A stretch of DNA of 64,000 nucleotides, from the IMG/VR virus record IMGVR_UViG_3300008267_007212, one strand, 5' to 3'. Below the pieces are notes generated by a model. It saw only the letters and a program-made list of their open reading frames with translations, searched no databases and was not told the DNA's origin. Numbering within the stretch: position 1 is the first letter of the stretch; every line of letters starts with the position of its first letter. A program made the position numbers and the translations under genes. Origin of the DNA: a virus. Below are positions 22 through 19,035 of this stretch, piece by piece.

Positions 22-1503
22 TCACGACAATACTTTTACTCCGTATAATTGTTCAAATCTGTCAGCGTCGACCCGGTCATTGACCATAGGTTCACCCCTA
101 ATGTTTAGACTAGTATTTAATAGCATAGGACAATCTGTGACAATAAACCATTTTTCTAAGAGTTCTCTGATTCCCGATCCGTCCTTGGGCACAGTCTGAA
201 CACGACTAGTTCCATCATGATGCACAATAGCAGGAAATAAGTCAGGACTACGGCAACAAGCGACTGACTGCATATAAGGACTATGATCGAAGCCAGGGGG
301 CATATCAAAATACTCGCTAGCGTATTCTGCCAGAATAACTGGCGCAAAAGGTCTGAACTTTTGTCTACGTTTGATTTCATTTACTCTATCCTTAATATCA
401 TTTCCTCTGGGGTCAGCCAATAAACTACGATTGCCTAATGCTCGCGGGCCGAATTCTGCGCGGCCACTTGCCACACCAACAATACGATCACGCAAAAGAG
501 TATCCAGGGCGTCATTAACAGGGTAAGAGCCAGGAATAAGATGACCCAGATAAGCATCATTCCAATTAATGCGGCCGCCATAAACAAGAGCAGCGGCACC
601 AAGACTAGACCCTGCATCCCCGGGATTAGGCATAATCCAAATATTTTCAAAGTATCCTCCTACACAGCTATTAATACTACAGTTAAGAGCAACACCGCCC
701 ATGTATACCAGATTAGAACTCCAGTTAAAATCTTTTGCTCTACGCATGATATTTAACACTAAATCTTGGGTCAGATCTTGTGCGCTGGCTGCAATGTCCA
801 TATCTCCTACGTAGGACAAATACTTTTGTTCTATGCCCGTATGAAGATTTTCTTTAAATTTAATTTCCCATTCATTGTGCAAAAATTTGGACTTAAATAA
901 ATCAGTGAACGCTGGCACACCATATGCTGCCATACCCATAAGAATATATTCTTCTTCATTGGGTTTAAGACCAACACGTTCTGTCATTGCACTGTAAAAC
1001 AGTCCTATACTATGCGGATATTTTTGACGCCATAATCTTTTATAAACGGCTTTTCCTTGAACGTATTCTGCTGCCCAAATGCTTATTGTATCCCATTCAC
1101 CAATGGCATCGATTACAACCACCGTGGCTTTGTCAAATGGGCTTGTCTGAAACCCTGCAGCCGCGTGGCATAGATGATGATTGTGCGTTGAAATCGGTCC
1201 TGGGAAATTAGAAAATTCTTTGCCTATTTGCCTATTAAGAATCTGTCGAACAGTTAATTTATTCCATTCAACACCTTGACCGCTGTACAGTTGTCTTAAC
1301 TGTTTATTCCATGGTCGTTCATAGTAAGCAACATGGTCAATTCTATAATTAATTATTTCTTTGATTATACCAGGACTTAAATTTGGATCGTTTTTAATTT
1401 TACTATAGCGTTCACTGTGACCCGCATATAATATATTTCCATGATAGTCAATGACACTTAATGCAGCATCATGGAATCCTGCAGATATTCCTAAAATATT
1501 CAT
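22..1503 (-). CDS. Carbamoyltransferase, NodU/CmcH/TobZ family
   Basis: N-terminal ILGISAGFHDAA, HHLCHAAAG, DAIGE, GGVALN and PGDAG motifs (Kae1-like domain). C-terminal GRAEFGPRALGNRSLLADP, RPFAP, DGTSRVQTV and LLNTSLN motifs (YrdC-like domain). Confidence 0.95.
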   Translation of the reverse strand: MNILGISAGFHDAALSVIDYHGNILYAGHSERYSKIKNDPNLSPGIIKEIINYRIDHVAYYERPWNKQLRQLYSGQGVEWNKLTVRQILNRQIGKEFSNFPGPISTHNHHLCHAAAGFQTSPFDKATVVVIDAIGEWDTISIWAAEYVQGKAVYKRLWRQKYPHSIGLFYSAMTERVGLKPNEEEYILMGMAAYGVPAFTDLFKSKFLHNEWEIKFKENLHTGIEQKYLSYVGDMDIAASAQDLTQDLVLNIMRRAKDFNWSSNLVYMGGVALNCSINSCVGGYFENIWIMPNPGDAGSSLGAAALVYGGRINWNDAYLGHLIPGSYPVNDALDTLLRDRIVGVASGRAEFGPRALGNRSLLADPRGNDIKDRVNEIKRRQKFRPFAPVILAEYASEYFDMPPGFDHSPYMQSVACCRSPDLFPAIVHHDGTSRVQTVPKDGSGIRELLEKWFIVTDCPMLLNTSLNIRGEPMVNDRVDADRFEQLYGVKVLS

Positions 1504-1601
1504 TTATAGATAAAAGGATCTTGCTTTCGCAATTCTTTGAGTTTGCGACGATAAGTGATTTCTAATTTAATTCTGTAGTATAAATTTTTAAGCCATTTCA
1601 T
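1500..1601 (-). CDS. Unannotated 33-aa basic peptide MKWLKNLYYRIKLEITYRRKLKELRKQDPFIYK
   Basis: Translated by hand. It fills the gap between two operon genes: ATG 4 nt after the upstream stop, and its TGA overlaps the carbamoyltransferase ATG (ATGA coupling). Confidence 0.8.
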   Translation of the reverse strand: MKWLKNLYYRIKLEITYRRKLKELRKQDPFIYK

Positions 1602-1605
1602 GATA

Positions 1606-2706
1606 TTATTTATTGAGTAAACTACTGCTGTAATCGTAACCAGGTTTTAATCTTTCGATTTGTTGATCATAGTAGTCTTTGTCCGACCAAGTATAAGAAT
1701 AGACAGAGCGTAAAATGTTTCCCGACCCATCATCGCATTGAATTGAATATATGTCTAAATAACTCGATAGTATGGGCCAAACTTCGCTGTATTTGATCGT
1801 ACCAAAACTTCTTTGTAAGTCAACTTGCCCCACTGAATGATATCCGAAATTATATTGATTATCTTCGGGATCGAATCCATTTCGTTCAAGCCATGATTTA
1901 AACCCAGACATTTCTTTGGTGTACCAAGGGTGAGGCCCATTATAACATACGTCCTGTGCCCATTCGATATCAAACTCGCCGCTGTAGTAACGTAGATGTG
2001 TAATAGCATCACAGGTTGTCTTGTCGACGTCAACTCCTTTTTCATCTCTATAAACTTCAAACAGTGTTTTGCCAATCTGTGTCCAATGTAAGTAGACTTC
2101 CCCGAATTTTCTATCATACCTTGATTCTTTAAAATTAGTTTTATATGTTGACGGAAATTCGTATCGCGAGGCATTTAGAAATGTAGTGATTTGACTAGGC
2201 CTAACCCACTCAGGCAATGTTGCTTGTTTACGTTGACTCAGCATTAAACTCTCTGCTTCGTGACATAGATTATTCAATTGTCTGATAGCGAATTTAGTTG
2301 TATAATCTGCTTGTTTATAATAATCACTGAGTCCCCACACAGTTCCTTGCAAAATTTCAAAATGGTTATGCAATTTGTTCATTAACTCTTGATTAGGATT
2401 TAATGTTTCAGGATTTCGTAGAGTAAAAGGGTAAAAGTTTTCTTCTATTTTATACTCGCCTTGGAAGAAATCATTTATTACATTCTTGACCCAGAATAGT
2501 TCTCTACAAATATATTCTAAATCTCTTTGACTGTCGGGAAATCCCAAGAAGCAAAAGTTTTTTTCCAGATATTTGTGTTGCTGTACAATTTCTTGTAATG
2601 CCGTAAACCATCGCTGAGCCATTTCATGCTCGTAGACATTGATAATATAGTCTAATGTTTTTGTTTTATCTAACGGATTTCGTAGTGTTATTATTACTTT
2701 ATTCAA
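1606..2706 (-). CDS. Hypothetical protein in the modification operon (His-containing helical motifs)
   Basis: 366-aa ORF overlapping the upstream gene. Motifs NKLHNHFE, LNNLCHEAE and YLHWTQIGKT. No family recognised. Confidence 0.75.
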   Translation of the reverse strand: MNKVIITLRNPLDKTKTLDYIINVYEHEMAQRWFTALQEIVQQHKYLEKNFCFLGFPDSQRDLEYICRELFWVKNVINDFFQGEYKIEENFYPFTLRNPETLNPNQELMNKLHNHFEILQGTVWGLSDYYKQADYTTKFAIRQLNNLCHEAESLMLSQRKQATLPEWVRPSQITTFLNASRYEFPSTYKTNFKESRYDRKFGEVYLHWTQIGKTLFEVYRDEKGVDVDKTTCDAITHLRYYSGEFDIEWAQDVCYNGPHPWYTKEMSGFKSWLERNGFDPEDNQYNFGYHSVGQVDLQRSFGTIKYSEVWPILSSYLDIYSIQCDDGSGNILRSVYSYTWSDKDYYDQQIERLKPGYDYSSSLLNK

Positions 2707-3991
2707 TTGAATTCCACCATTTTAATACTTCAGGTTTTGTTGAGAGTATATCACGCATAGTATAACTATCATTTCGAATTTGTTCAAGTCTTTCGATTCT
2801 TGCTTTTCCTTTACGCAAACCAATTTGATATTCGTTGGGCCATTGTTCCTTAAAGGTGGGTCTAGTTTTTAGTTGGACAAGTATATCCTTTAACGGATTA
2901 TTACTAGTACCACTTATGATTTCGTCTGCCCAAGGATGTAATAATTCCCGGGGAAGAGATAAAGGTGACATAACTATGTCTGGACTAAAACTAAAAATTA
3001 CTTTCGCGAGAATATCGACTTTTTCTTCTTCTGCAAGTCGCTGGATATTAGCAATTTCGAACATGCCGGGCAAAGTGAGCGTAAAGTCAATTCGCATTTG
3101 ACGTCTGTGACTAGCGATTTTAACTCCTTCACGGAAGTTTGCAAGCCAAGAATTGTAGTCAAGGCCTGTTCTAATGTATTCTCCAATTTTTCCTGTGCCG
3201 TCGATACTTGCACAAATCTGCCAATCACGAAGCCCGCTGAGAATATCATTATAAAGATTGATACCTTTATAATTAATTCTTGATAAGTTTGTATTGTATC
3301 TAGCGTAAACATTTGGGCCGTCTCCTAATTCTATTATTCTCTGCATGTATCTCCAATGTTGCTCATACATGAGAGGCTCGCCCCCTACCCAATATACTTC
3401 TTCGACTCGATGCTCTTCGACGGCTTGACTAAACTCTGCCTCAATTTGTGTGTCTTGAAACTGTTCAATTTGTTTTTTGATTTCGGGCTGCATCCAATTA
3501 TTTTTTGGATCCGCCCAATTGATCATGTTGTGTTGTCGTTGCTCACTTTCCCAAGCACTGCTTAACATGTCTCCACACATTCGACATTTAAAATTACAAA
3601 GATTACTAAATCTGTAATCCCAGCTCACAGGCTTCATATCTGTTGAGCCGTCGTGGCAAGTTTTTTCCATTGCTTCATTGTACTTATGACCAAACAATTG
3701 ATTAAAATAGCTACGGTAAACATTGGTGTTTAGCAATTTGTCGTTGCATACTTCACACTCTGGCAGAGTTTCGCCGGCCATCATTCGACGCCGAACAGAT
3801 TTCATATGTTCACTATTCCAATGTTCATCTAAATTAATTGGTATATATTTTCCAGTACCAGACTTAGTATCTATGTACTGTTGAAAACTTTGTGCTGGTT
3901 CGCGACTTGCACAACACATTCTGCGTTCTGTTTGTGGACTCAGATATGTATGTGTCCACGGTGCAAGGCAAAGAGTAAGCGGTTTATTCAT
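2699..3991 (-). CDS. Radical SAM protein with N-terminal SPASM/twitch-like Cys module
   Basis: CNFKCRMC (CxxxCxxC), GGEP and YNTN motifs. N-terminal CLAPW..CC..CxxC. Confidence 0.92.
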   Translation of the reverse strand: MNKPLTLCLAPWTHTYLSPQTERRMCCASREPAQSFQQYIDTKSGTGKYIPINLDEHWNSEHMKSVRRRMMAGETLPECEVCNDKLLNTNVYRSYFNQLFGHKYNEAMEKTCHDGSTDMKPVSWDYRFSNLCNFKCRMCGDMLSSAWESEQRQHNMINWADPKNNWMQPEIKKQIEQFQDTQIEAEFSQAVEEHRVEEVYWVGGEPLMYEQHWRYMQRIIELGDGPNVYARYNTNLSRINYKGINLYNDILSGLRDWQICASIDGTGKIGEYIRTGLDYNSWLANFREGVKIASHRRQMRIDFTLTLPGMFEIANIQRLAEEEKVDILAKVIFSFSPDIVMSPLSLPRELLHPWADEIISGTSNNPLKDILVQLKTRPTFKEQWPNEYQIGLRKGKARIERLEQIRNDSYTMRDILSTKPEVLKWWNSIE

Positions 3992-5189
3992 AGCCCATGG
4001 CCTTTGCTATTTCGGGATGTGTATCCATAAAATTTTGTTTTCGATAAGCATCTGTGCGCTTCATATTGTTTAAAAATATTTGCCCGTCGCTGCCTGCACC
4101 GTTTTCGATAAATTTAATTACATTTTCAATTTCTTGGTGATGTTCCTCTGTGTTCCAAAAAGTTGTTTTAAGTTTATTCAAAACTAATTCTTTGGCTGCA
4201 GGAGTTAACTGTTGAATACTCATATGGTCTGGGCTGTGCAACATATTAAAATAAATGCTGTCAAAAGGTTTGGTGCTTGCCCAGGCCAGTAATTCATCTA
4301 AGTAATATACATTTTGAATATTAATAGTGAAACAAAGTTGAGTAGTAATGTTAGGCGTGTCAACGTCACGGGCAAAATGAACTCCGTCGATTATTTCGTT
4401 GGCCTTATCCCAATCTGCCCCGTATCGTTCATATTCAAATCTTTCACCGACATTGTCGATGCTAAATGCAATATCTACACGACCAAAATTATTCCATAAA
4501 GCTGATTTTTGTATGCCTAACCCGTCGATAGTTGCATTGGTATTATAATGAATATCGATATGTTTACTATGGCCTGTTGCTACTGCATATCGTAGTAAAT
4601 CCCAGTGTTCTTCGATTAACCAAGGCTCGCCCCCGGTAAATTCAAAATACTTAATATTGGGTAGTAACGATTTTAAATTCTCCCAAAAATTAGGACTCTC
4701 CTCTGGCCACTTACCTTGTTTAAGCCAAGTATATGCAACATGTTTTTTCTTATCATGTCCTTGCGGCAAATACTCTAATTCTTCTGCCGCCCACTTACTA
4801 CTGCTCCAACTGCCGCATATCCTGCACTTTAAATTACAAATGTTGCCCAGCTTTAAATCAATGAACCATAATTGATCAGGAACATCGTTTTGCCAATCGA
4901 CCAATGGGTATAACTCTTTGAGTCTAACTTGACTGTGAATACGTTTACTAGTCCTGTTTGCGGCTTCCTCATCCCAGCATAATTTACAGGTATTTGGTTT
5001 TTCGCCGCGGCGGAATTGTCTACGTAAGTTTTGCATATACTCGCTAGTATATGCATCTTGTAATGTATGTCTTCTAAGATCAACACCAGTAATATCTTCT
5101 CTTGCAAGACAACAAGGTCTTGCAGTACCCATGGGGCTAGTCTCGATACTAATCCATGGCAACATACAAATACTATTAGGTAAAGTCAT
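3984..5189 (-). CDS. Radical SAM protein with N-terminal SPASM/twitch-like Cys module
   Basis: CNLKCRIC, FTGGEP and YNTN motifs. N-terminal CMLPW..PCC..CKLC. Confidence 0.92.
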   Translation of the reverse strand: MTLPNSICMLPWISIETSPMGTARPCCLAREDITGVDLRRHTLQDAYTSEYMQNLRRQFRRGEKPNTCKLCWDEEAANRTSKRIHSQVRLKELYPLVDWQNDVPDQLWFIDLKLGNICNLKCRICGSWSSSKWAAEELEYLPQGHDKKKHVAYTWLKQGKWPEESPNFWENLKSLLPNIKYFEFTGGEPWLIEEHWDLLRYAVATGHSKHIDIHYNTNATIDGLGIQKSALWNNFGRVDIAFSIDNVGERFEYERYGADWDKANEIIDGVHFARDVDTPNITTQLCFTINIQNVYYLDELLAWASTKPFDSIYFNMLHSPDHMSIQQLTPAAKELVLNKLKTTFWNTEEHHQEIENVIKFIENGAGSDGQIFLNNMKRTDAYRKQNFMDTHPEIAKAMGYE

Positions 5190-6523
5190 TTATTTTTTAA
5201 CTCGCTTAATTCAGGAAATGTGTTCCAAAAGTTTTCTCCCCTGAGATTATCAATTAAATTAATTTCTTGTTTAAATTTACCCCAGTGCTGTGAGCCGTCG
5301 GTGGACATTAGGAAATTAATGGCACTCTTGAATCCAGTTGTTGCTCGTTTTAATGGATCTTGCGGTTCTAACCATTCAATATGTCTTTCGTATGCTGGTT
5401 TAATTACTCGCTCTTTAAATTCTTGCGGGAACAAATCAATCCTATACCATTCAGGACTTTGACAAATATTCACATTAAAATCTTTAGGCTTAATAAATCC
5501 CATATCAACCCATTCTTTATGAAAATCTAAAACGTGCAATACATTCATAGCACTAATAGTAGATGCAATATAAAAATCTACGTGCGGTACTTCTTCCAAC
5601 ATACGTTCACGATTGCGAACTGTTTGTTTCCAGTCTGTGCCTTTTCGCATTAGTTCTGCTCTGGCTCCGCTGGCATCTAAGCTGGCTCCTACTCCTACAG
5701 TTCTAAAATGTTTCCAGTATTCGAATACATGTTTATCTTTAAAAGCTAATTCACTAAAATTTGTATTGTATTGAATACAAACGTCTGTTCGTCCTGCTTC
5801 AATAAGTTTTTCTAATAGATAATAGTGTTCCTTCATAATCAAAGGTTCACCGCCTGCAAAATAAACTTGTTCCAAGTAGGGAATATGTTCTTCCATTTGT
5901 GCAATCATATAATCTTCGTCGCCAGCAGCATATTCAATTCTGGCCAAATCTTTGCCGTTTACGTCAGGCACTCTATTGAATAATTTGACATGATCATTAT
6001 ACCAATTACTGCTAAAAACCGGGCCGCACGTTCTGCAACGAAAATTACACAAATTGCTAAACCTAACGTCCCAGTATCTGATTTTAAATTCTGGGTGTGT
6101 TCCGTCTGGCAGTGTTTTATCTACGTCTGCAATATTATGTCCGTAACTACGATTAGCATCATAACGCATACTAAAGAATCCGTTTTCTTCTTGTTCATAA
6201 CATTTGGTACATTGTTTAACTGGCTGATCTGCCATCATTAAACGTCTGATCTCTTTGTACCCTTCTTGGTTCCAAACTTCTTGCATTGAATTCTTTTTTA
6301 AATTTCCAATTGGATGAAAGTATTCTGCAAAGCAACAAGGATACACTCTGCCGTCTGGGTAAGCATGTTGGTGAACCCATGGTAACATACAAAAAGATTT
6401 ACTGTTCGTTAATCTGTTGATTTGAGTTTCTGTCAGCGTTGCAGGATCTGCAAATAATGGTTTCCTACTATTGTAATCGTAACCACGTTTATAAAATCTA
6501 TCAGTTTTTTTATCTTCGCTCAT
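5186..6523 (-). CDS. Radical SAM protein with N-terminal SPASM/twitch-like Cys module
   Basis: CNFRCRTC, FAGGEP and YNTN motifs. N-terminal CMLPW..DGRVYPCC..IGNL..CTKC is a textbook SPASM-like signature. Confidence 0.93.
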   Translation of the reverse strand: MSEDKKTDRFYKRGYDYNSRKPLFADPATLTETQINRLTNSKSFCMLPWVHQHAYPDGRVYPCCFAEYFHPIGNLKKNSMQEVWNQEGYKEIRRLMMADQPVKQCTKCYEQEENGFFSMRYDANRSYGHNIADVDKTLPDGTHPEFKIRYWDVRFSNLCNFRCRTCGPVFSSNWYNDHVKLFNRVPDVNGKDLARIEYAAGDEDYMIAQMEEHIPYLEQVYFAGGEPLIMKEHYYLLEKLIEAGRTDVCIQYNTNFSELAFKDKHVFEYWKHFRTVGVGASLDASGARAELMRKGTDWKQTVRNRERMLEEVPHVDFYIASTISAMNVLHVLDFHKEWVDMGFIKPKDFNVNICQSPEWYRIDLFPQEFKERVIKPAYERHIEWLEPQDPLKRATTGFKSAINFLMSTDGSQHWGKFKQEINLIDNLRGENFWNTFPELSELKNK

Positions 6524-7869
6524 AGTGTATTATACCAATCTGCCAGAGAAGGAAATGTTTTACAGAAGTCTTTACCTCTGCGCTGATCGTACTGTGTGTA
6601 AAATTGTTTGAAATCACTGCGTAATTTAGACAGCTCAAATGCATCGCTGTGTGGAGTTTTTACAACATCCAAGTAATCTATTAATCTCTGTAAATGATTT
6701 ATTTCATGCTCATGTAAATAGTTATGTCCTTTATGGCGAACAAGAAAATTAACCAATTGATCTTTGTATTTTGATTTAATATCATCAGGCAACACCAATG
6801 GACTCTGAAAACTAGGAAAACGTAAAATATTTAAAGTAAAATTAGGATAGTCTCGGCCGAATTCTTTCTTTAAGTCTATTAGAGTATCTAAGAAATCAGG
6901 CAATGTATCCAGGCATAATGCATTAATTGTACACATAATATGAAGCCCGCGAAACTTTTTACTGTTAACAAGCTTCATAATATTTTCTAACCACAGAGTA
7001 TAATTTAAACCATCTCGTATATATTCTGCTTGAATGTGATCACTTTCGTTGCTAGTATATAAGTCTATTTCTAAACCATCCACGCTGTCAATTAATCTAT
7101 CGATATCAACTTGATAACCTAAATTACTGTTAATAGCTAAACGTGTTTGGCTTTTACCTTTATTAGTTTTAAACCAATCGATTAGTTTCCAAGTTTCTCC
7201 ACTCATCAAAGGTTCTCCGCCCGTAATACGTAATTCCTTTAATGTGCGATGTAAGTCTGATTCCCACCATTTATGAAATGCTTCAACATAGGGATTAACT
7301 TCGCCAAATTTATATAGTTGACTATGATCATGAGTATGAGTAAAATGATTCCTGCCGTCACTAACCAATCCTGTATAAGGCCCGTTACGTTTGATGTCAT
7401 TGACCCATGTACTGCTAAAAGCAGGATTGCAATAACTACAAGCAAACTGACAAGTTCTGTCGAAAGCAATTTCAAGAGTTTGAAGATTGAAATCTTCTCT
7501 TGCTGGGGTTCTGTATGCATATGCCAAATCTTCATCATTGTAAATTACAGTTTTGTATACTCGATCGCTTATTGCATCTCGACCCATGTCTTCGATCTTC
7601 CAGCAGTACTCGCAACCTGACGGTCTTTCGCCCTTCTGCATCTGCTCTCGTTCCATTTTCTTTTTTTGAGTATTGTGCAATGCCCTAGGATTTCGTTCAA
7701 CATCGTCAATGTCTACTTTGTGCGGCAAGGGATGGTGGCAACTAGTAGTCATTCCGCTACCTAACCATATAGTAGCATTATACCATTTAGCTCCGCAAAA
7801 AGAATTTGATTTAATGTCGATTACTCTGCGTTTGTAATCTAAGTCTGTTTCATTGTTTATTCTTGGCAT
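6520..7869 (-). CDS. Radical SAM protein (CxAKW subclass)
   Basis: CQFACSYC and ITGGEP motifs. N-terminal CGAKW..SCHH..CEYCW. Confidence 0.92.
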   Translation of the reverse strand: MPRINNETDLDYKRRVIDIKSNSFCGAKWYNATIWLGSGMTTSCHHPLPHKVDIDDVERNPRALHNTQKKKMEREQMQKGERPSGCEYCWKIEDMGRDAISDRVYKTVIYNDEDLAYAYRTPAREDFNLQTLEIAFDRTCQFACSYCNPAFSSTWVNDIKRNGPYTGLVSDGRNHFTHTHDHSQLYKFGEVNPYVEAFHKWWESDLHRTLKELRITGGEPLMSGETWKLIDWFKTNKGKSQTRLAINSNLGYQVDIDRLIDSVDGLEIDLYTSNESDHIQAEYIRDGLNYTLWLENIMKLVNSKKFRGLHIMCTINALCLDTLPDFLDTLIDLKKEFGRDYPNFTLNILRFPSFQSPLVLPDDIKSKYKDQLVNFLVRHKGHNYLHEHEINHLQRLIDYLDVVKTPHSDAFELSKLRSDFKQFYTQYDQRRGKDFCKTFPSLADWYNTL

Positions 7870-8890: not shown

Positions 8891-10022
8891 TTAAAAGATC
8901 CTTAACTTTGTCAGGAAGAGTAATGTTTTTTCTATCTTCCCATTGTTTTAAAAAGTGTAAAAATTCTGAAAATAAAGTTTTATTAAATTTGGTTGAAGAC
9001 AATATACTTAAAACAACATCAACATTCTTTATATTTTTATTATCTAACAAAGTTAATAACACAGTTTCTGCTTGTTTTTTAATCTTATCCGGAGTTGCTT
9101 CAATGCTTTGAATTCTGGGATTTTGACCATATGACAATACCCAATGAAATTTATCTTTATATTTTTCTATTCTGGGCAGTATTACAGTAGATGAGAAGTT
9201 TTCAATATCGCAGAGAGTTAAATTAGTCATCAGACTTGATATATTAATTTTGATATTTTCTTCGCTGCGTTCTAATAGATAGTCCAAATTCTTCAAAAAT
9301 AAATCATAATCAAGACCATATCTAACAAATTCTGATATTTCATCACAAGAATCTAAACTGGCGTTTATTACAATGTATTTGAATTTATGTCTATTAGATA
9401 GTAGTTTATCTATTGCTTTTTTATCGACCATTAAATTTGAAGTTACATCTAAAATTCCTTTATGGTCTATCGTATCTAAGATATTAAAAAAATTTTTATT
9501 TATTAATGGTTCACCACCTATTATTCTCAAAGTTTCAAATTTCACAGTGTTTAACAATTCTAAATTTTCATCTATTAATTGCTTATTTTTAATATCTACA
9601 CTGTAGACATGTCGATCTGTAAACAATTGATATTTTTGATTTTGTATATCTTTTTCCCATTGACTGCTAAACTTTGGATTACAATACATGCATTGCATAT
9701 TGCAAGCATTGCCAACATTAATTTCAATTACCTTAGGCGATTTATTATTTTTATATTCATTAAATGTCGATATATCAAATTTTTTTAAGAATTGAATTCT
9801 GAGACTGGTGCCGTTTGTTTTTTCAGAATTCCAACAATAAGAACAACTTGGATCTTTTACATTGTTTAATAAATTTTGTTTTTGATGATCAATGATTTCA
9901 TTGTAATCGTTGACAAATTTTTCTGGCTTTGCTTTACAGCAACCATATACATAGTTATAACTAGTATTGATGATTAGCTCATCCCATTTAGCCGGACAAA
10001 AAGTGTCAGGTAGTTGTTGCAT
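8877..10022 (-). CDS. Radical SAM protein (CxAKW subclass)
   Basis: CNMQCMYC and IIGGEP motifs. N-terminal CPAKW..GCC..CSYCW. Confidence 0.9.
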   Translation of the reverse strand: MQQLPDTFCPAKWDELIINTSYNYVYGCCKAKPEKFVNDYNEIIDHQKQNLLNNVKDPSCSYCWNSEKTNGTSLRIQFLKKFDISTFNEYKNNKSPKVIEINVGNACNMQCMYCNPKFSSQWEKDIQNQKYQLFTDRHVYSVDIKNKQLIDENLELLNTVKFETLRIIGGEPLINKNFFNILDTIDHKGILDVTSNLMVDKKAIDKLLSNRHKFKYIVINASLDSCDEISEFVRYGLDYDLFLKNLDYLLERSEENIKINISSLMTNLTLCDIENFSSTVILPRIEKYKDKFHWVLSYGQNPRIQSIEATPDKIKKQAETVLLTLLDNKNIKNVDVVLSILSSTKFNKTLFSEFLHFLKQWEDRKNITLPDKVKDLLNAKD

Positions 10023-11397
10023 AATATTTGCATTCCTTCCAAAAATCTACCATTTCTGGAAATGCCAAAATAAAGTTAGTTCCCCTGCGTCGATCATGTT
10101 CATTAAAAAACTTATAAAAATTTGCTTTTTGCATTTTAACATAATCAGGATCCAACTTGCTACCTTCTCTCATCCAATCTATCACTCTTTGTAACCGCTG
10201 GACTTCATAGTCTTTGAATCCGTGAAATGGAGTTTCGGGCTGTTCCATTTTTGTAATCATAAAGCTCCACGATGTCTCTAGCTGATCGACATAGCTTTCA
10301 GGTAATAGTTGTAAACTTTGCCATTCTGGTTTACGTAGAATTGGAGTATCAAACCAGACACGCTGATATGTTTTGCTGTGTATTTGCCTAAGTCCCAGTA
10401 TGCAACCTAATAGATTTTGAAGTCCCATTACATTTAAATTATTCATAGTAATTATAAATGTTAGACTACTACGATTCGGAACTTCATATAAAAATCTGTT
10501 AACGTTATCCCAAAATCTTTCAAAATTTAATCCATGTCTGATATATTCAGCCTGCATAAAAGTAGCATCTATACTAACATACTGCATGAAATGCTCGATT
10601 TTTTTATTCTCATTGTCGCACAGTCTTTTTACATAATCCAGATACTTGTCAAATAATGCAGGCTCAACACTGAAATTAGAAGTTACGTTTAAATGTAGCT
10701 TGGGACTAGGATTTTCTAATACGTAATCAAAAACACGATACGTATTTTTATCCATTAGTGGTTCTCCACCAGTCATCCTAAAATGTTCTAGTTCAGGATA
10801 TAATTTTGGCCACCAAGACCAAAAGGCATCGACATAAGAATTATCTTCTCTTGCAGGGATAACTTTTCTATCTCCCGTAAAATGACTGGGATCATTGTGC
10901 GGAGGATTAGTAGGAAAAGCTCCGCTACGTTCTACGTCACTGGCCCAACTGCTAGAGTATTGGGGACTACAATAACTACAAGCCAGATTGCAAGCATTAT
11001 TAAAATTAACTTCTACATAGGAAGGAAGTACATCTTCATCCCCAGTAGAATTAGCTATTGTTTCAAAATCTTTTGCAGCCCATGGTTCCCCACTACGATA
11101 ATGTCGATCGCTTAAATTGCCCAAATCTTCTTGTGTCCAACAATAACTACATTCTTGTGGGCGCTCATTATGGAGCATAATCTTACGCTGCTCTTTTTTG
11201 TAAGGTGTATTATGTAATGCGCTGGGATTATTTTTTACTAGCGTTGAGTCAATTTTATGTAAAGGTGGATGATAACAACTGTTATTGAGACCCGTAGGCA
11301 AATGCAAGCTTACTTGTTTCCACTTTGCTAAACAAAGAGCAGGACCTAATTTAGATTTTGCTTCTTCAGCCGAGTTTAAAAAAACACTTTTAGACAT
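10006..11397 (-). CDS. Radical SAM protein (CxAKW subclass)
   Basis: CNLACSYC and MTGGEP motifs. N-terminal CLAKW..SCYH..CSYCW. Clear paralogue of 6520-7869. Confidence 0.92.
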   Translation of the reverse strand: MSKSVFLNSAEEAKSKLGPALCLAKWKQVSLHLPTGLNNSCYHPPLHKIDSTLVKNNPSALHNTPYKKEQRKIMLHNERPQECSYCWTQEDLGNLSDRHYRSGEPWAAKDFETIANSTGDEDVLPSYVEVNFNNACNLACSYCSPQYSSSWASDVERSGAFPTNPPHNDPSHFTGDRKVIPAREDNSYVDAFWSWWPKLYPELEHFRMTGGEPLMDKNTYRVFDYVLENPSPKLHLNVTSNFSVEPALFDKYLDYVKRLCDNENKKIEHFMQYVSIDATFMQAEYIRHGLNFERFWDNVNRFLYEVPNRSSLTFIITMNNLNVMGLQNLLGCILGLRQIHSKTYQRVWFDTPILRKPEWQSLQLLPESYVDQLETSWSFMITKMEQPETPFHGFKDYEVQRLQRVIDWMREGSKLDPDYVKMQKANFYKFFNEHDRRRGTNFILAFPEMVDFWKECKYYATTT

Positions 11398-12448
11398 TTA
11401 ATAATAACTTCTTTGAAAATTTGTGAAAGGGTAAAGAATCAAATAAATTTTCTTTTCTAATTTTATCTAGAAATAAAACATGTGAAATCGTATGGATTAT
11501 CAATGTTTTATTGTAATTATTTTGTATTCTTGATTCTATTGCGTCGTACATTGATTGTGTAATATAAGGCCTAATACCAGCCAAACACTCAATAGCTAAC
11601 GTTTGTAATTCATCTGGGATTGCATTTAAGTTTAAAAAGTCTGGACCATTTAATAAATTTAATTCAATTTGATAATCTTTAAAGTATGAAAGTAACTTTG
11701 GTAAATGCCAAAAATTCAATATACTAACAGTGGGAGAAATTTTTATACGTAAATTTGTAAGTTGTAACGATGCTAAAAGTTGTAGATTTTTGTTAACATC
11801 TTCCCAAGATGCACCAGATCTGATATATTCAAATTCTTTTTCTATTGCATCTATACTGCATGTTACATTGATTGATTTGAATTCTTTCCAAATATCAGTA
11901 ATTGACGCATCTTTATATTTTAGGGTTGTCAAATTTGTATTATACATTAATGCTATATTTTTTGCTTGACCAGATTCTATATATTTTTTTAAAATTGCCC
12001 AATGATCCCCATTTATAAATGGCTCTCCTCCAGTAAAATATGCATGTCGGACCGATGGAACCGTTATTATATCATAATAATCGTCCAAACTTTGATGTGT
12101 GATCGGTAATCCGAGCTCAGCAGCCCATTGGCTACTCGCATCTGCATTACAAGACCTGCATTTTAAATTACATAGGTTGGTATTTCTTATATCTAAGAAC
12201 TGTAGTTCATTATTATCTATTGCATTTTTATTAAAAAAAGTTCTATAACTTGGTATCTTTTCCTGCTCTGCATCGATACATGTTTTGCATTCTTGAGGTG
12301 GTACACCAGTTTGTAGATCTTCAAACAAGTTACGATTACCAATCTCTGTCATTGGTTTTCTATAGTTTGAATCTATTAGACAACACGGAGAAACTCCGTT
12401 TGAAAAAATTGTCAGACTATTTTTATATGCTGCACATTTCCAAGTCAT
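11390..12448 (-). CDS. Radical SAM protein with N-terminal Cys module
   Basis: CNLKCRSC, FTGGEP and YNTN motifs. N-terminal C..SPCC..CKTC. Confidence 0.9.
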   Translation of the reverse strand: MTWKCAAYKNSLTIFSNGVSPCCLIDSNYRKPMTEIGNRNLFEDLQTGVPPQECKTCIDAEQEKIPSYRTFFNKNAIDNNELQFLDIRNTNLCNLKCRSCNADASSQWAAELGLPITHQSLDDYYDIITVPSVRHAYFTGGEPFINGDHWAILKKYIESGQAKNIALMYNTNLTTLKYKDASITDIWKEFKSINVTCSIDAIEKEFEYIRSGASWEDVNKNLQLLASLQLTNLRIKISPTVSILNFWHLPKLLSYFKDYQIELNLLNGPDFLNLNAIPDELQTLAIECLAGIRPYITQSMYDAIESRIQNNYNKTLIIHTISHVLFLDKIRKENLFDSLPFHKFSKKLLLNV

Positions 12449-13092
12449 AGTTGTTGTATCAAAATTAAAGCAAACTTTTGCTGTTCGTTAGCAGTGGGAT
12501 GCCGAGTGGGTGTCATGATATCGTTAAATGAAACTGATAATTTTGTGTTGAACTCATGCCCAAACACAGAAAAATCGTAGTATTTTATGTGTTGCGAATC
12601 CATCCACAATCTAAACAAATTTATCAACATGCCTGCTGTATTAGTTTGATCAATGAAGTTGTTTTCTATCATGATCTTGTGTAACTTTGGCAGTGTTGAT
12701 AGATGTTGTTGATTGTGTTTGTCTGTGATAAATTTTACATTGTTTTTGTGTTCTACAAATACATCTGGATCGCTGTGATCACCTAGCAAAACGTAACTGG
12801 GGAGGATTTGCAACATAGAATCTTGTGTGTAAAAGCCTGCTCGGGCTGGATTGGTCCACCTTACAATTACTGTGTCAATATCCTGTTGATGGTGGGAAAG
12901 ATAATGATACCCGACCTCCACTGTTCTCTGTACAGAGCTTCCAGGTTCAGCCAAGTTTAAATAGTCTAGTTCTAGGTGATCAGCCACATAGTGACCAAAT
13001 GCATGTTCTGTGTTTTTTGGGTCTTTAAACACGCTTGCAGTGCCTATGCCGTGACAAAAACTATCTCCAAGAACCAGTAACTTTTTTACCAC
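12445..13092 (-). CDS. SGNH/GDSL-like hydrolase or acyltransferase
   Basis: N-terminal LLVLGDSF (block I Ser), NLAEPGSS (block II) and C-terminal RHP (block V His). Confidence 0.7.
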   Translation of the reverse strand: MVKKLLVLGDSFCHGIGTASVFKDPKNTEHAFGHYVADHLELDYLNLAEPGSSVQRTVEVGYHYLSHHQQDIDTVIVRWTNPARAGFYTQDSMLQILPSYVLLGDHSDPDVFVEHKNNVKFITDKHNQQHLSTLPKLHKIMIENNFIDQTNTAGMLINLFRLWMDSQHIKYYDFSVFGHEFNTKLSVSFNDIMTPTRHPTANEQQKFALILIQQL

Positions 13093-14012
13093 CCTTCAAC
13101 TCGTCGAATAACATCTAACTCAGTTATTGTTGTTCCTATATTACGATGCACTGCTTTATAATGATGCTTGAAAAATGCGCTTTGATCTGCTGTCATATCA
13201 ACAATAGGTAGCCCTAGTCGTGTACGTAACGTTTGACCGATATTCTCACAAGCAGGCTCTGCATCTTTACTAAAGCTGTTCCATAAATATGCAAGATGAT
13301 CAAAATCTTGTACTTGTTTATAATCCCACTCTCTTAACATAGTCATGTACGTACCTAGGCGAGCACCGTATATGGCCCACCATCCATTTTCCACGTCTCG
13401 GCCGACACTTTGCCAAATACATAAATGATCATAGTTTCGAGCATGAACTTTTTGTTCAAACTCTTGCAGGCTGGGTTTCTTTCCTCGATCTAAACACATC
13501 TTAACACCTTCGCGGAATCCTGCTCGCCATGCTTGAAAAGGTGTTGCATTGGGAAATGTAGTACTATAGCAATCATGCATGGGAATATACTTAGGGTCAA
13601 AACAAAACTCTATCACGGTTTCGTCTCTGCCGTCAGTGGCTTCATGTGTTCGCATATTGTTAACGAACTCTTTGGTCCAGCAACTTATTCCGCCGTTGCC
13701 GTACATTAACCCATTGATATGATTGCGAGCCTTCCATCTAAACACACAATCTTGATTATTGTCGTCTAATTTAAGTTGGAGATTAAAAAACTCAGCGTCA
13801 GGTATATTGTCTCCGTCTATTAGCACGAACCTATCAGTATCGCTGGCCGCGGCGGCTGCTTTATGTGCAGCATCACTGCCTTTAACTCCATCCACACGTT
13901 TAGCCCACGGAATTAAATTTTGAATCTTAATCCAAAATTCTTCTTTTTTTGGTTCGTCGTAGGTTAAAAATATACAATCGAGATCTGCAATATCAACGAT
14001 TTTTGTAGTCAT
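13086..14012 (-). CDS. Glycosyltransferase-like protein (GT-A fold, DxD)
   Basis: IFLTYDEP, VDGVKGSDAAH, FVLIDGDN and YGNGG motifs. Start placed at ATG 14012 rather than 14042 to reduce the overlap with the upstream gene. Confidence 0.7.
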   Translation of the reverse strand: MTTKIVDIADLDCIFLTYDEPKKEEFWIKIQNLIPWAKRVDGVKGSDAAHKAAAAASDTDRFVLIDGDNIPDAEFFNLQLKLDDNNQDCVFRWKARNHINGLMYGNGGISCWTKEFVNNMRTHEATDGRDETVIEFCFDPKYIPMHDCYSTTFPNATPFQAWRAGFREGVKMCLDRGKKPSLQEFEQKVHARNYDHLCIWQSVGRDVENGWWAIYGARLGTYMTMLREWDYKQVQDFDHLAYLWNSFSKDAEPACENIGQTLRTRLGLPIVDMTADQSAFFKHHYKAVHRNIGTTITELDVIRRVEGW

Positions 14013-14418
14013 AGTGTTCTGTGTCTTTAAAAGTTTCGCCATCTTCCAAAATTATGCCAGATAAATTTTTTACTGTTTTAAAACCAGTCTGACTTTTTTC
14101 AAGTTGAGGAGTTTGATTTAAGTTATCTTTTTTGATCGAAACTTTATCGTTTTGTATTCGATACTTGTAGCATTCCATATACACGGATTTATAAGTATTC
14201 TCATCTACTACAATATAATCACCAGAAAGGCCGTACATTTCTGCATCTTTTACTGTAGGGGATGTAGCCGTGATGTTTCCACTTTCATCGTAGTATATTC
14301 GATATTCGTATTCAATTAGTGCAGGTTTATCTATTAGCCCTAACTCGTCTAATTGTCGAATTATTTCTTCTAAGGTAGTATCTTCATTGACTGTTATGGT
14401 AGGTTCGTTCGTACTCAT
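13993..14418 (-). CDS. Hypothetical protein
   Basis: 141-aa ORF in the operon, overlapping both neighbours. EYRIYYD motif. Confidence 0.7.
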   Translation of the reverse strand: MSTNEPTITVNEDTTLEEIIRQLDELGLIDKPALIEYEYRIYYDESGNITATSPTVKDAEMYGLSGDYIVVDENTYKSVYMECYKYRIQNDKVSIKKDNLNQTPQLEKSQTGFKTVKNLSGIILEDGETFKDTEHYDYKNR

Positions 14419-15235
14419 TTAATAATTCCTCTGTTACATATGATTTATCATAATAATGCACTGGGTTGTATTGATTTAGATTGTGAATTTTAATCATGTG
14501 GTTATCTCGGTCATGCATTACTATGTCTTGCCAAGACTGATCGGTATTACCCCAACCATTGATACCAGGTTTCAAATGTATAAAATTAATGAAATCCATG
14601 GTAGGTATAGTGCATAGTTCTACTCCTATCGTCTTTGCTGTTACTGCATACAGTGCATCGGTGCTGGGTATATCTTCTCGACAATTTTTTAATATATTCT
14701 CTTTGAGATAATCCCAATTTCTTAAAATTCTTTGTGCTGTTAAAAAGAAATCACTGGCTGTTTTACTATATCTAAAATACATCAAACCATTATATATGTC
14801 CGGAAGATCATTATCATCAAAAAATTTTCTATAAAGTCTTGATGTAGATAATTCTTGTCTATAAGTTCTGCAGCCAGTGCTCAATACAACATCTCGCAGT
14901 CTAAAAGCATTCCACCAATGGTCAATATTCCGTGTAAATAATAAGTCACTTTCTAATTTAATAGTTTCTTTAAAAGGACTCAGTGAAAAAACTTGATATT
15001 CATTGGATAGCTTCCATGTACTACCTGTGTCGTTTTCGTCATAGGGAAGTTCGATAATGTGATCAAAAACTTTTGTGTGTTTATCTGTGATTTGATCGAT
15101 AGTATTTTTATCACAGATCACTGCATACTTAGCACCCGGGTGTAGGCTTTTTACATTCATTGCTTGGCAATACGCAAGTCTAAGATAATCTATCTTATCT
15201 GTATTCTGTGCAAATGTAAGAAAACCTTTACTCAT
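14384..15235 (-). CDS. Glycosyltransferase-like protein (GT-A, GT8-like)
   Basis: KGFLTFAQN, DYLRLAY, SPFKETIKLESD (DxD variant), YNGLMYF and STD motifs. Paralogue of 15228-16049. Confidence 0.7.
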   Translation of the reverse strand: MSKGFLTFAQNTDKIDYLRLAYCQAMNVKSLHPGAKYAVICDKNTIDQITDKHTKVFDHIIELPYDENDTGSTWKLSNEYQVFSLSPFKETIKLESDLLFTRNIDHWWNAFRLRDVVLSTGCRTYRQELSTSRLYRKFFDDNDLPDIYNGLMYFRYSKTASDFFLTAQRILRNWDYLKENILKNCREDIPSTDALYAVTAKTIGVELCTIPTMDFINFIHLKPGINGWGNTDQSWQDIVMHDRDNHMIKIHNLNQYNPVHYYDKSYVTEELLNEYERTYHNSQ

Positions 15236-16049
15236 TACAAACAGCCTTTACAAAGCTATCAAATTGTTCTGACAATAGATAGTTCTTATCCATGATATGC
15301 AAATTTTGTCTGCTGATTACATCTGCCCGGTGTTTGTACTTAACAGTTAAAAATTTATTTTTGAGATCGATAGACTCAATGTTGTCTTCTATGGTCAACA
15401 TTAGCCAAGGTATACTTTGCTCAGGAGTCAGTGTATGGCCATTTAAAATGATATTGGCCATACTGAATGCAAAATCGTTTCTATAATTTGTTTCTCTAAC
15501 AGCAAACAAACTTCTATAATATCCATAGTTTCGTTGTATACGGCCCACTAAATCGAAAAACATTTTAGCTCTTGTAGTTTTTCGAAATAGTACTACAGTA
15601 GCCCAAACCATTGGCAAACTCGCAGGCCCCATTTCATCTGTGTTAAGTCCCAGTGGGGTCTGCATGTTATACATTAATCTATAGTCAAAGGGTTGGTCGA
15701 GTAACTTTATCAAGCTATTGTTGAGCATCAAATAATCAGTGTCTATTAAAATGGTTTCATCATATGGACTTAAATCGAATGCTCGATACCTATCAAAATT
15801 TTTCCATTCATATAATTGCTGATCTTTGGAAAATCTGACGTTGCCAGTTTTACTATCAACTCGAATTATTTGATCATAATCAAATTTTAATTCGGCATCT
15901 ATGTCTGTGACTATCGTTACAGGAAGGTTTGTATTTTTTTTGATTAATTTACTTGTTTGGTCTGCTATATCGGTATATTTGACTTTTCGACTGTTAAAAG
16001 CAAATACCAACACACCTTTAGATTTTTCTAATTCGCTTGAGTTCTTCAT
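15228..16049 (-). CDS. Glycosyltransferase-like protein (GT-A, GT8-like)
   Basis: KGVLVFAFN, SPYDETILIDTDY (DxD), WATVVLF and YRNDFAFS motifs. Confidence 0.72.
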   Translation of the reverse strand: MKNSSELEKSKGVLVFAFNSRKVKYTDIADQTSKLIKKNTNLPVTIVTDIDAELKFDYDQIIRVDSKTGNVRFSKDQQLYEWKNFDRYRAFDLSPYDETILIDTDYLMLNNSLIKLLDQPFDYRLMYNMQTPLGLNTDEMGPASLPMVWATVVLFRKTTRAKMFFDLVGRIQRNYGYYRSLFAVRETNYRNDFAFSMANIILNGHTLTPEQSIPWLMLTIEDNIESIDLKNKFLTVKYKHRADVISRQNLHIMDKNYLLSEQFDSFVKAVCNE

Positions 16050-16344
16050 GTTGTTGGTGCCACTCGTTCATTGCTGAATGATAGTGTTGTTGTGCTTTAA
16101 TTAAAAATTCTTGTTTATCTATTTCTATAGGATTTTGATAAACATCCTCAAGATAAAATCTGTCAATGGGCCAACTTGCAGCAAATGCCAATAGTTCTGG
16201 AGTTATTTTGAACAATCCGTTTTCATAAGGCATGTGTAAGTCTGTTAAAATACGTTCCCTTAGCAATCGTTTGTTAATTTGATAATCTGTAGCCAATTTT
16301 ATCTGATTGACTATTTCTTCGACAGTGCTGTTCATATTGGACAT
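16018..16344 (-). CDS. Hypothetical protein, first gene of the modification operon
   Basis: 108-aa ORF immediately downstream of the sigma70-type promoter. Confidence 0.7.
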   Translation of the reverse strand: MSNMNSTVEEIVNQIKLATDYQINKRLLRERILTDLHMPYENGLFKITPELLAFAASWPIDRFYLEDVYQNPIEIDKQEFLIKAQQHYHSAMNEWHQQHEELKRIRKI

Positions 16345-16349
16345 AAAAT

Positions 16350-16382
16350 GATAGGTATATACTATTATAATATATACCTATC
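16350..16382. repeat. 12-bp perfect inverted repeat (operator, cruciform or terminator)
   Basis: GATAGGTATATA-ctattataa-TATATACCTATC. The 9-nt loop contains the -10 box. Confidence 0.75.
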
Positions 16383-16393
16383 TCATATGTCAA
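16364..16393 (-). promoter_or_regulatory. Sigma70-type promoter TTGACA-N18-TATAAT for the modification operon
   Basis: Minus-strand TTGACA at 16393-16388 and TATAAT at 16369-16364, both perfect consensus, about 20 nt upstream of the ATG at 16344. Confidence 0.8.
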
Positions 16394-17341: not shown

Positions 17342-17353
17342 ATTTTGTTCCGT

Positions 17354-19027: not shown

Positions 19028-19035
19028 TATTTATA
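19028..19035 (-). promoter_or_regulatory. T4-type late promoter TATAAATA
   Basis: Exact T4 gp55 consensus about 21 nt upstream of the tail fibre ATG. gp55 is encoded in this window. Confidence 0.75.

Follow-up and report, generated by a model that had tools for sequence, protein, structure and literature searches.

What can a phage be making with seven radical S-adenosylmethionine (SAM) enzymes, candidate glycosyltransferases, an SGNH-type enzyme and a carbamoyltransferase, all encoded in a single operon? The question is raised by positions 22 to 16,344 of a 64,000-nt stretch of DNA (hereafter the window) from the IMG/VR virus record IMGVR_UViG_3300008267_007212. A reading made from the sequence alone had proposed an unassigned hypermodification pathway that decorates phage DNA, virion proteins or the host surface. 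Our analysis shows a real, selected and co-inherited biosynthetic operon, widespread among phages and uncharacterised, in which a sugar-transferase module is joined to a carbamoylation module. The explanation that we favour, while giving it slightly less than an even chance, is that a cytoplasmic pathway builds a glycan on a phage-made acceptor, edits it by radical chemistry and O-carbamoylates it.

A conserved operon of two modules

Sixteen large open reading frames (ORFs) run along the minus strand from position 16344 down to 22, and the addition of a 33-residue ORF at 1500-1601 brings the number of co-oriented genes to 17. Neighbouring genes overlap by 4-50 nt at 15 of the 16 junctions; the remaining one is a 4-nt gap. 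The sequence TTGACA-N18-TATAAT at 16393-16364 (-), the only 12/12 match to a sigma-70 promoter within the first 20 kb of the window, falls in the 58-nt gap ahead of g01; the ORF listing and the promoter match thus agree with the original description of 17 co-oriented, nearly all overlapping genes under one consensus promoter. The features of the locus, with the basis of each assignment, are as follows (core and variable refer to retention among relatives; NF033640 is the NCBIfam family discussed below; GT denotes glycosyltransferase and aa amino acids).

16403-19006 (-): fibre-like genes u1 (312 aa) and u2 (550 aa), upstream neighbours, context outside the operon
16350-16393 (-): sigma-70-type promoter (12/12 match) and an overlapping terminator-like hairpin, with a 15-bp stem followed by a T-run
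16018-16344 (-): g01, 108 aa, first gene of the sugar-transferase module; no family match
15228-16049 (-): g02, 273 aa, candidate GT8-like (glycogenin-like) GT-A glycosyltransferase; joint g02/g03 profile
14384-15235 (-): g03, 283 aa, paralogue of g02, GT8-like candidate; joint profile and a match to phrog_1903 (E 4e-6)
13993-14418 (-): g04, 141 aa, least constrained core gene; no family match
13086-14042 (-): g05, 318 aa, probable GT-A fold glycosyltransferase; conservation and weak Foldseek rows
12445-13092 (-): g06, 215 aa, SGNH/GDSL-fold esterase or acyltransferase; profile A6
11390-12448 (-): g07, 352 aa, N-twitch radical SAM protein, variable; NF033640 E 2e-70
10006-11397 (-): g08, 463 aa, N-twitch radical SAM protein, core, sugar-transferase module; NF033640 E 5e-97
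8877-10022 (-): g09, 381 aa, N-twitch radical SAM protein, variable; NF033640 E 1e-58
7850-8890 (-): g10, 346 aa, variable, glycosyltransferase-like motif by eye only; no match
6520-7869 (-): g11, 449 aa, N-twitch radical SAM protein, core, carbamoylation module; NF033640 E 1e-85
5186-6523 (-): g12, 445 aa, N-twitch radical SAM protein, core; NF033640 E 2e-121
3984-5189 (-): g13, 401 aa, N-twitch radical SAM protein, core; NF033640 E 2e-99 and synteny
2699-3991 (-): g14, 430 aa, N-twitch radical SAM protein, core; NF033640 E 1e-87 and synteny
1606-2706 (-): g15, 366 aa, predicted cyclophilin-like barrel with an inserted four-helix bundle; structure model
1500-1601 (-): g16, 33-aa basic peptide ending DPFIYK; small-ORF call and conservation
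22-1503 (-): g17, 493 aa, O-carbamoyltransferase of the NodU/CmcH/TobZ type; Pfam Carbam_trans_N and Carbam_trans_C

Relatives were drawn from a scan with g12 (39 viral loci), from a scan with the g16 peptide (the best 80 of at least 225 viral loci) and from 10 contigs of metagenome-assembled genomes (MAGs). The gene order is common to more than 120 phage loci: u2, u1, g01-g05, g08, g11, g12, g13, g14, g15, g16 and g17 keep it almost everywhere, and g06, g07, g09 and g10 come and go (an orthologue of g07 is missing from most relatives, and g09 is kept in a minority). The operons examined hold 5-7 N-twitch radical SAM genes each, and related phages devote 16-30 kb to the system. The ratio of nonsynonymous to synonymous substitution rates (dN/dS) of the core genes is 0.02-0.15. 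Co-occurrence in relatives and purifying selection, on which the sequence-only reading had made its proposal depend, are therefore both observed.

A cultured phage, Ralstonia phage RsoM2USA (MG752970), carries the system split over two loci that lie 90 kb apart. Its carbamoylation locus, Rso199-203, has the order DUF6071, radical SAM (g11 type), DUF6071, peptide, DUF6071, carbamoyltransferase; the radical SAM protein is 52% identical to g11 over its full length, the carbamoyltransferase is 45% identical to g17, and the peptide is an unannotated 36-aa ORF ending DPFIYK between RsoM2USA_201 and RsoM2USA_200 (14168-14278, +, of locus L045). The sugar-transferase locus, Rso348-354, lies downstream of tail genes and begins with g01-, g02- and g03-like genes and a g04-sized slot; a g05-like gene comes next, followed immediately by a radical SAM gene with g08 as its nearest relative and then by another g05-like gene. 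The genome thus has two N-twitch genes, one of them beside the peptide, and we found no counterpart of g15 in it. Every gene of both modules is annotated as hypothetical in the record, and the RsoM2USA paper makes no mention of the genes of either module. Because the two loci are separate in this phage, we describe the system as a sugar-transferase module and a carbamoylation module that are able to exist apart; sequence comparison indicates that the lake phages fused the two and expanded them with extra radical SAM paralogues.

A bacterial origin of the peptide was considered and rejected, since all 10 hits of that kind lie on MAG contigs and those long enough for a judgement carry the phage operon. 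Five contigs of 148-335 kb, L129 and L130 (Haliscomenobacter MAG), L135 and L136 (Neomarinimicrobiota MAG) and L134 (Pacearchaeota MAG), carry either the phage operon or the peptide-carbamoyltransferase pair together with phage replication genes; in L135 just the peptide and a truncated carbamoyltransferase accompany the replication genes. All of them resemble jumbo-phage DNA that ended up in MAGs during binning.

A small peptide travels with the carbamoyltransferase

The assignment of g17 as a carbamoyltransferase, made in the sequence-only reading, is secure: its Kae1-like N-terminal and YrdC-like C-terminal domains score 139 and 158 bits against Pfam cut-offs of 24 and 27 (E 1e-40 and 1e-46), and the solved enzymes NovN, GdmN and TobZ match it at E 1e-51, 1e-45 and 1e-31, respectively. 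Its His-x3-His segment, HHLCHA, aligns with HHLAHA of NovN and is presumably a metal site, as in TobZ. NovN and TobZ carbamoylate a sugar hydroxyl.

The stop codon of g16 overlaps the start codon of g17 (ATGA). Although the first list of genes did not single it out, this 33-aa peptide is conserved more strongly than any other gene of the operon, with residues 17-33, its C-terminal half, near-invariant. Across 67 distinct sequences the proportion of synonymous differences (pS) is 0.80, which is saturated, and that of nonsynonymous differences (pN) is 0.14, giving a pN/pS of 0.18. The family comprises 263 clusters at 50% identity, and it has no Pfam match and no named homologue.

In its genomic distribution the peptide travels with the carbamoyltransferase and not with the radical SAM genes. 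It adjoins carbamoyltransferase genes in distant phages, and marine T4-like contigs have the order primase, peptide, carbamoyltransferase without an N-twitch radical SAM gene alongside; the marine enzymes are either 50.6% identical to g17 or consist of the Kae1-like N-terminal domain alone. Because the peptide is paired with the carbamoyltransferase in marine phages that lack N-twitch genes there, a role as precursor for the radical SAM enzymes is unlikely. No g16-type peptide was found near the carbamoyltransferase genes of the cyanophages P-SSM2 and C48C1 or of the fragment AG-345-D19, so the pairing is not universal for phage Nol-like enzymes.

Two marine T4-like contigs, one of them L149, place the peptide-carbamoyltransferase pair between primase and DnaB. 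The neighbours of the marine pair include genes for 3-deoxy-D-manno-octulosonate (KDO) 8-phosphate synthase, CMP-KDO synthetase, a 2-oxoglutarate oxygenase and a radical SAM protein, the last having its Cys-rich domain C-terminal in L149. Another locus, L076, has two peptide genes: the first (7382-7477) has KKPFIYW at its end and runs into the start of a separate, roughly 170-aa ORF, and the second (8001-8099), of canonical form, precedes the carbamoyltransferase match by about 10 nt.

The possibility that g16 is a piece of a split carbamoyltransferase was discarded: the two genes do not share a frame, 263 clusters keep the peptide as an ORF of its own, and in RsoM2USA it coexists with a full-length N-terminal domain. 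It may instead be a ribosome-arrest leader peptide, whose conserved C-terminal half would end, as observed, at a stop codon overlapping the next start; however, it is kept ahead of different downstream genes and also as tandem copies.

Seven radical SAM proteins of one orphan family

All seven radical SAM proteins (g07, g08, g09 and g11-g14) match NF033640 (N_Twi_rSAM) at 199-406 bits, above its curated whole-protein cut-off of 170 bits, and the number given by the sequence-only reading therefore stands. Each of the seven also matches Pfam Radical_SAM, although only four exceed the gathering score of that family; in g12 the match spans residues 154-318. Three of the proteins have an N-terminal Pfam SPASM match ahead of Radical_SAM (g12, residues 45-109; g13, 8-72; g14, 8-83). 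In an alignment of the seven paralogues, C159, C163 and C166 of the CxxxCxxC core are invariant, as are C64, C105 and C108 of the N-terminal Cys-rich twitch domain. In place of the original labels, BtrN-type sugar oxidases or peptide cross-linkers, all seven belong to one uncharacterised family with the reverse domain order.

Mutual identity among the paralogues is 18-25%, as against 65-80% to orthologues in other phages (60-95% for g08 in relatives). These values mark them as old, distinct paralogues, which probably have distinct jobs, and would fit one reaction per enzyme. Relatives of g12 form at least 5,894 clusters at 90% identity in public metagenomes, none with a named function, and literature searches turned up no characterised member, reaction or paper for NF033640. 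The best solved relative of the radical SAM profile is TvgB (8vpo, E 5e-8), a cyclopropyl synthase that acts on a ribosomally synthesised and post-translationally modified peptide (RiPP); MoaA, viperin, BlsE and BtrN rank after it at much weaker scores (E 0.007-0.008 for BtrN and BlsE).

One near-complete relative, IMGVR_UViG_3300022602_000024 (G002; 354 kb, 98% complete; loci L137-L142), carries 12 N-twitch genes. Five of them belong to the operon, and the other seven are scattered singly, adjoining genes for DNA polymerase B, DnaB, UvdE, GroEL and an FAD oxidoreductase. Environmental T4-like genomes with up to 12 radical SAM genes have been reported before (Nishimura et al., 2017; PMC5332604).

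Glycosyltransferase candidates, the SGNH enzyme and unassigned proteins

As judged from their sequences, the other recognisable enzymes of the operon are of carbohydrate type, namely GT8-like, GT-A-like, SGNH and, with g17, a NovN/TobZ-type O-carbamoyltransferase. The SGNH call had been right, although by Pfam alone g06 gives a faint match below the cut-off. Profile A6, built from g06 and its DUF6071-like relatives, matches the GDSL protein 4rsh (E 4.5e-6) and an acetyl-xylan esterase (E 0.002), and its alignment keeps G9, S11, G15 and H198 invariant and N46/N54 nearly so, G15 being the glycine that comes after the GDS block. In relatives a DUF6071-like gene adjoins the peptide, and g06 is its counterpart in the window.

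The glycosyltransferases of the sequence-only reading fared unevenly. A joint profile of g02 and g03 (A5) matches glycogenin-1, a GT8 enzyme, at E 4.6e-5 over its first 110 positions and across the Asp-x-Asp segment, where glycogenin has D-A-D, the profile consensus E-S-D and, by eye, g02 itself D-T-D. This makes the pair GT8-like candidates, whereas Pfam is silent, with none of the 29 profile members matching its GT8 family. The most conserved enzyme of the operon is g05 (mean column identity 74% in alignment A3, with D76-G-D78 invariant), which is probably a GT-A fold glycosyltransferase according to its structure model (predicted local distance difference test, pLDDT, 68.5). The top Foldseek rows for this model, the very best included, are mostly GT-A or other nucleotide-diphospho-sugar folds, all at E 0.03 or worse and none below E 0.001, and include beta4GalT7 (probability 0.91), DPMS, ArnC and A64R of the chlorella virus PBCV-1; profile searches of g05 against PDB sequences gave chance rows or nothing, and the ESM Atlas returned its own viral clusters and a faint GT2 lead. 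For g10, even profile A7 found no Pfam or PDB match.

Pfam, PHROGs and NCBIfam are almost all silent on the operon's dark proteins. The model of g15 is confident (pLDDT 87, predicted TM-score 0.85), and VIA-align pairs its residues 1-331 with many cyclophilins at middling Z scores of 8-9.5; Foldseek gave no match, the PDB profile search chance rows or none, and the ESM Atlas nothing. The first gene, g01, is kept in nearly all relatives (dN/dS about 0.08; the RsoM2USA counterpart is 35% identical), and g04 is 29-83% identical to its relatives, with a dN/dS of 0.16-0.5.

A separate transcription unit

Between the fibre genes and the operon lies the promoter-hairpin element, whose hairpin has a computed RNA fold of -23 kcal/mol. 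The layout is found again in most of about 20 distinct relatives, with stem sequences that differ yet still pair, the -35 box just 5' of the stem and the -10 box within the loop or the 3' arm; relatives with this overlap include L007, L013, L014, L016, L020, L022, L024, L028, L033, L039 and L042. A hairpin with a T-run and an overlapping -35/-10 pair between u1 and g01 indicates, from sequence, that the operon is its own early-type transcription unit, and the element resembles a conserved insulator that sets it apart from the late fibre genes. Directly ahead of the fibre gene u2 there is a T4-late-type TATAAATA (19028-19035, -), of which the 64-kb window has two copies against about 10 expected by chance.

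What the operon may make

We propose a cytoplasmic "build, edit and cap" pathway whose product is an unusual carbohydrate and whose genes are expressed during infection from the operon's sigma-70-type promoter. In the sugar-transferase module (g01-g05 and g08), two GT8-like transferases and one GT-A-like transferase would lay down a short glycan, as their weak profile and fold matches suggest. Some twitch enzymes have sugars or nucleotides as substrates, and by analogy g07, g09 and g12-g14 might then each alter a sugar unit in a single radical step, be it oxidation, epimerisation, deoxygenation or C-C bond formation. In the carbamoylation module (g11, SGNH/DUF6071, g16 and g17), an enzyme of the SGNH class would add or remove an O-acyl group and one of the carbamoyltransferase class would O-carbamoylate a hydroxyl of the product, with g16, given its co-occurrence with g17, as a partner subunit or docking handle of that enzyme and not a radical SAM substrate. 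The acceptor, the weakest step of the scheme, would most likely be a phage-made protein, for example the upstream Ser/Thr-rich fibre proteins. The glycan reading is supported by the carbohydrate esterases among the best PDB matches of g06 and by a DegT aminotransferase and a nucleoside diphosphate (NDP)-sugar dehydratase/epimerase whose genes converge on the end of the operon, and the lack of membrane segments in all 17 proteins suits a cytoplasmic pathway. A narrower version we offer as tentative and, taken as a whole, rather doubtful: in giant T4-like phages, every N-twitch paralogue of an array would change a different position in a glycan carried by a virion protein, and a micropeptide-dependent carbamoyltransferase would cap the chain.

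Several observations weigh against this scheme. TvgB, the nearest solved relative of the radical SAM proteins, is a peptide maturase and not a sugar enzyme, and the N-twitch family is not tied to glycan genes, since seven of its 12 members in G002 stand alone in the neighbourhood of replication and repair functions. Evidence for the glycosyltransferases is weak (Pfam silent, g05 at a pLDDT of 68, g10 matchless), and the cyclophilin-like g15, g01 and g04 have no role in the scheme. The early-type promoter and the hairpin between fibre genes and operon weaken the fibre link.

A virion target had also been among the suggestions of the sequence-only reading, on the grounds that Ser/Thr-rich fibre genes lie directly upstream. 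They do, u1 being 34% Ser+Thr; however, their link to the operon is positional only, with the terminator-like hairpin and the promoter in between. On the whole, what survives of the first interpretation is a selected operon of carbohydrate type, and what is weakened, besides the BtrN/cross-linker label, are the host surface and DNA of the hydroxymethyl-pyrimidine kind as targets, both unlikely for reasons that belong with the other explanations.

A free small molecule, aminoglycoside- or nucleoside-like or a pseudo-oligosaccharide, released at lysis or acting in the host, would account for a toolkit that resembles antibiotic clusters: NovN, GdmN and TobZ, the solved enzymes nearest g17, act on small molecules, BtrN and BlsE are among the weak matches of the radical SAM profile (E 0.007-0.008), an aminotransferase, a dehydratase and a P-loop kinase are encoded nearby, all the enzymes are soluble and the promoter is of early type. 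We nevertheless regard this alternative as unlikely: no cyclitol synthase, non-ribosomal peptide or polyketide synthase, exporter or self-resistance gene was recognised among the assignable proteins, and a metabolite that diffuses away hardly explains the retention of 16-30 kb by hundreds of lytic phages. The nearest solved radical SAM enzyme being TvgB, one may also think of a RiPP-like product in which g16, as precursor or scaffold, is cross-linked or oxidised at its aromatic C-terminus and then glycosylated and carbamoylated. The most conserved gene does lie within the run of radical SAM genes, the Asp-x3-Tyr spacing of its product is reminiscent of PqqA, L076 has two copies of it, and the cyclophilin-like fold of g15 could bind a Pro-containing peptide. 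But the peptide stays constant while the number of radical SAM genes varies (one beside the peptide in RsoM2USA, 5-7 in operons, 12 in G002), the marine phages pair it with the carbamoyltransferase without an N-twitch gene, seven of the 12 G002 genes have no peptide nearby, and the operon proteins contain no Pfam domain for a RiPP recognition element (RRE), leader protease or exporter, although remote versions are possible; on balance we hold a RiPP to be improbable, a little below a DNA adduct in our ranking.

Such an adduct, glycosyl or carbamoyl, on a base of the phage DNA could serve to evade host nucleases, and was one of the targets first proposed. It would suit the early-type promoter, the neighbouring dCMP deaminase, ThyA, dihydrofolate reductase (DHFR) and P-loop kinase genes, the position of the carbamoyltransferase-peptide pair between primase and helicase in marine relatives and the scattering of radical SAM genes among replication genes. 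The ThyA encoded near the operon, however, matches true thymidylate synthases over its full length (E 1e-89), a measure of overall similarity at this locus only; because it is canonical and no hydroxymethylase or DNA-type transferase was recognised among the assignable proteins, an adduct of the 5-hydroxymethyl-pyrimidine kind is unlikely on sequence grounds. Nor was a DpdA/TGT-type transglycosylase, a pyrophosphorylase-type transferase or a DNA-binding domain recognised among the assignable operon proteins, and the GT8 and GT-A folds are, to our knowledge, not those of known phage DNA glucosyltransferases, all of which leaves DNA hypermodification in general quite improbable. Least probable is the third target of the sequence-only reading, remodelling of the host surface (lipopolysaccharide or capsule) during infection, for instance to block superinfection. 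NodU-type carbamoyltransferases, sulfation-type kinases and GT8 enzymes do occur in surface glycolipid pathways, and in marine relatives the peptide-carbamoyltransferase pair has genes for KDO synthesis nearby. A host-surface glycan is disfavoured, however, because membrane proteins are lacking: none of the 17 operon proteins has a membrane segment, the sole membrane-like product being a 71-aa DUF2061 protein encoded outside the window, and no flippase, polymerase, ligase, polyprenol-phosphate transferase or other polyprenol-linked step was recognised among the assignable proteins.

Relation to known systems

Literature searches for a characterised pathway or a paper describing the operon found none, in line with the earlier remark that no pathway of this composition was known. 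Every recognisable part is of a known enzyme kind, but their combination is undescribed, as are the orphan radical SAM family and the micropeptide partner. Soluble, virus-encoded GT-A enzymes glycosylate virions in the cytoplasm in other systems (PBCV-1 A64R and its capsid glycans, mycobacteriophage capsids and tail tubes, mimivirus fibrils), and there too, as at this operon with its candidate GT-A transferases, nucleotide-sugar aminotransferase and dehydratase genes lie near structural genes; the weak fold matches of g05 include PBCV-1 A64R. We know of no radical SAM array, carbamoyltransferase or partner micropeptide in any of those systems. NovN, TobZ, GdmN and NodU share with g17 the two-domain architecture and the aligned His-x3-His segment, but g17 is shorter (493 aa as against 576-702), has an obligate-looking 33-aa partner gene and counts N-domain-only proteins among its marine relatives. 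Radical SAM/SPASM maturases of RiPPs (TvgB, PqqE, MftC) likewise combine a radical SAM core, an auxiliary cluster domain and a small conserved peptide gene; in the operon, by contrast, the auxiliary domain is N-terminal, no recognition domain is seen and the peptide is tied to the carbamoyltransferase. With the other members of NF033640 the window's proteins have in common the N-terminal Cys-rich twitch domain and the CxxxCxxC core, but here there are 5-7 ancient paralogues per operon and 12 in the G002 genome. Lastly, the saxitoxin tailoring genes are reported to include sxtI (an O-carbamoyltransferase), the short ORFs sxtJ and sxtK, which have no known function, and sxtL (GDSL) (PMC2885083), a set that resembles the trio of g17, g16 and g06/DUF6071 in gene content; the saxitoxin genes are bacterial and act on an alkaloid, whereas the operon belongs to a phage.

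Solving the pathway would assign a chemistry to NF033640, would explain the heavy iron-sulfur enzymology of aquatic giant phages and could bring to light a new modification of the virion or the infected cell with a bearing on host recognition or defence evasion. If the narrower version given above is true, radical glycan editing would be the first reaction of this family and the product the first radical-SAM-edited viral glycan. Cultured RsoM2USA, as a minimal two-locus version, makes the question testable at the bench.

Neighbouring genes and further observations

The sequence-only reading suspected that the cluster might continue beyond the left edge of the window, and it does, with seven more co-oriented genes on an ENA contig of the same phage (L001). 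They are the following.

L001: 156-aa protein, no assigned family
L001: P-loop kinase, with an APS (adenosine 5'-phosphosulfate) kinase match limited to the first third of the protein
L001: the 71-aa, membrane-like DUF2061 protein mentioned above
L001: 225-aa protein, no assigned family
L001: dCMP deaminase
L001, 14205-15866 (+), just left of the window: 553-aa protein
L001: 417-aa protein, no assigned family

The C-terminal half of the 553-aa protein is a paralogue of g05, without a family match, and its N-terminal half has, by eye, three copies of a D-F-D-F-x-W-x-P-like motif. Beyond these seven genes lie the converging genes for the DegT aminotransferase, the NDP-sugar epimerase/dehydratase, ThyA and DHFR. 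A sulfation step was considered and dropped, as the APS kinase match covers the P-loop third only and a sulfotransferase idea for g18 and g21, formed by eye, found no support.

A megablast search of the 16.5-kb operon region against 50,697 phage records gave no match. The right half of the window encodes T4-type baseplate proteins, a late sigma factor, an SbcCD-like nuclease, a portal protein and major head proteins. The head protein shares 66-71% identity with its counterparts in jumbo myophages of 350 kb, among them Vibrio phage 2.275.O, Serratia phage BF and Yersinia phage fHe-Yen9-04. Between the baseplate and fibre genes, a single ORF of 4,673 aa (19843-33864, -) presumably encodes a giant fibre or tail protein.

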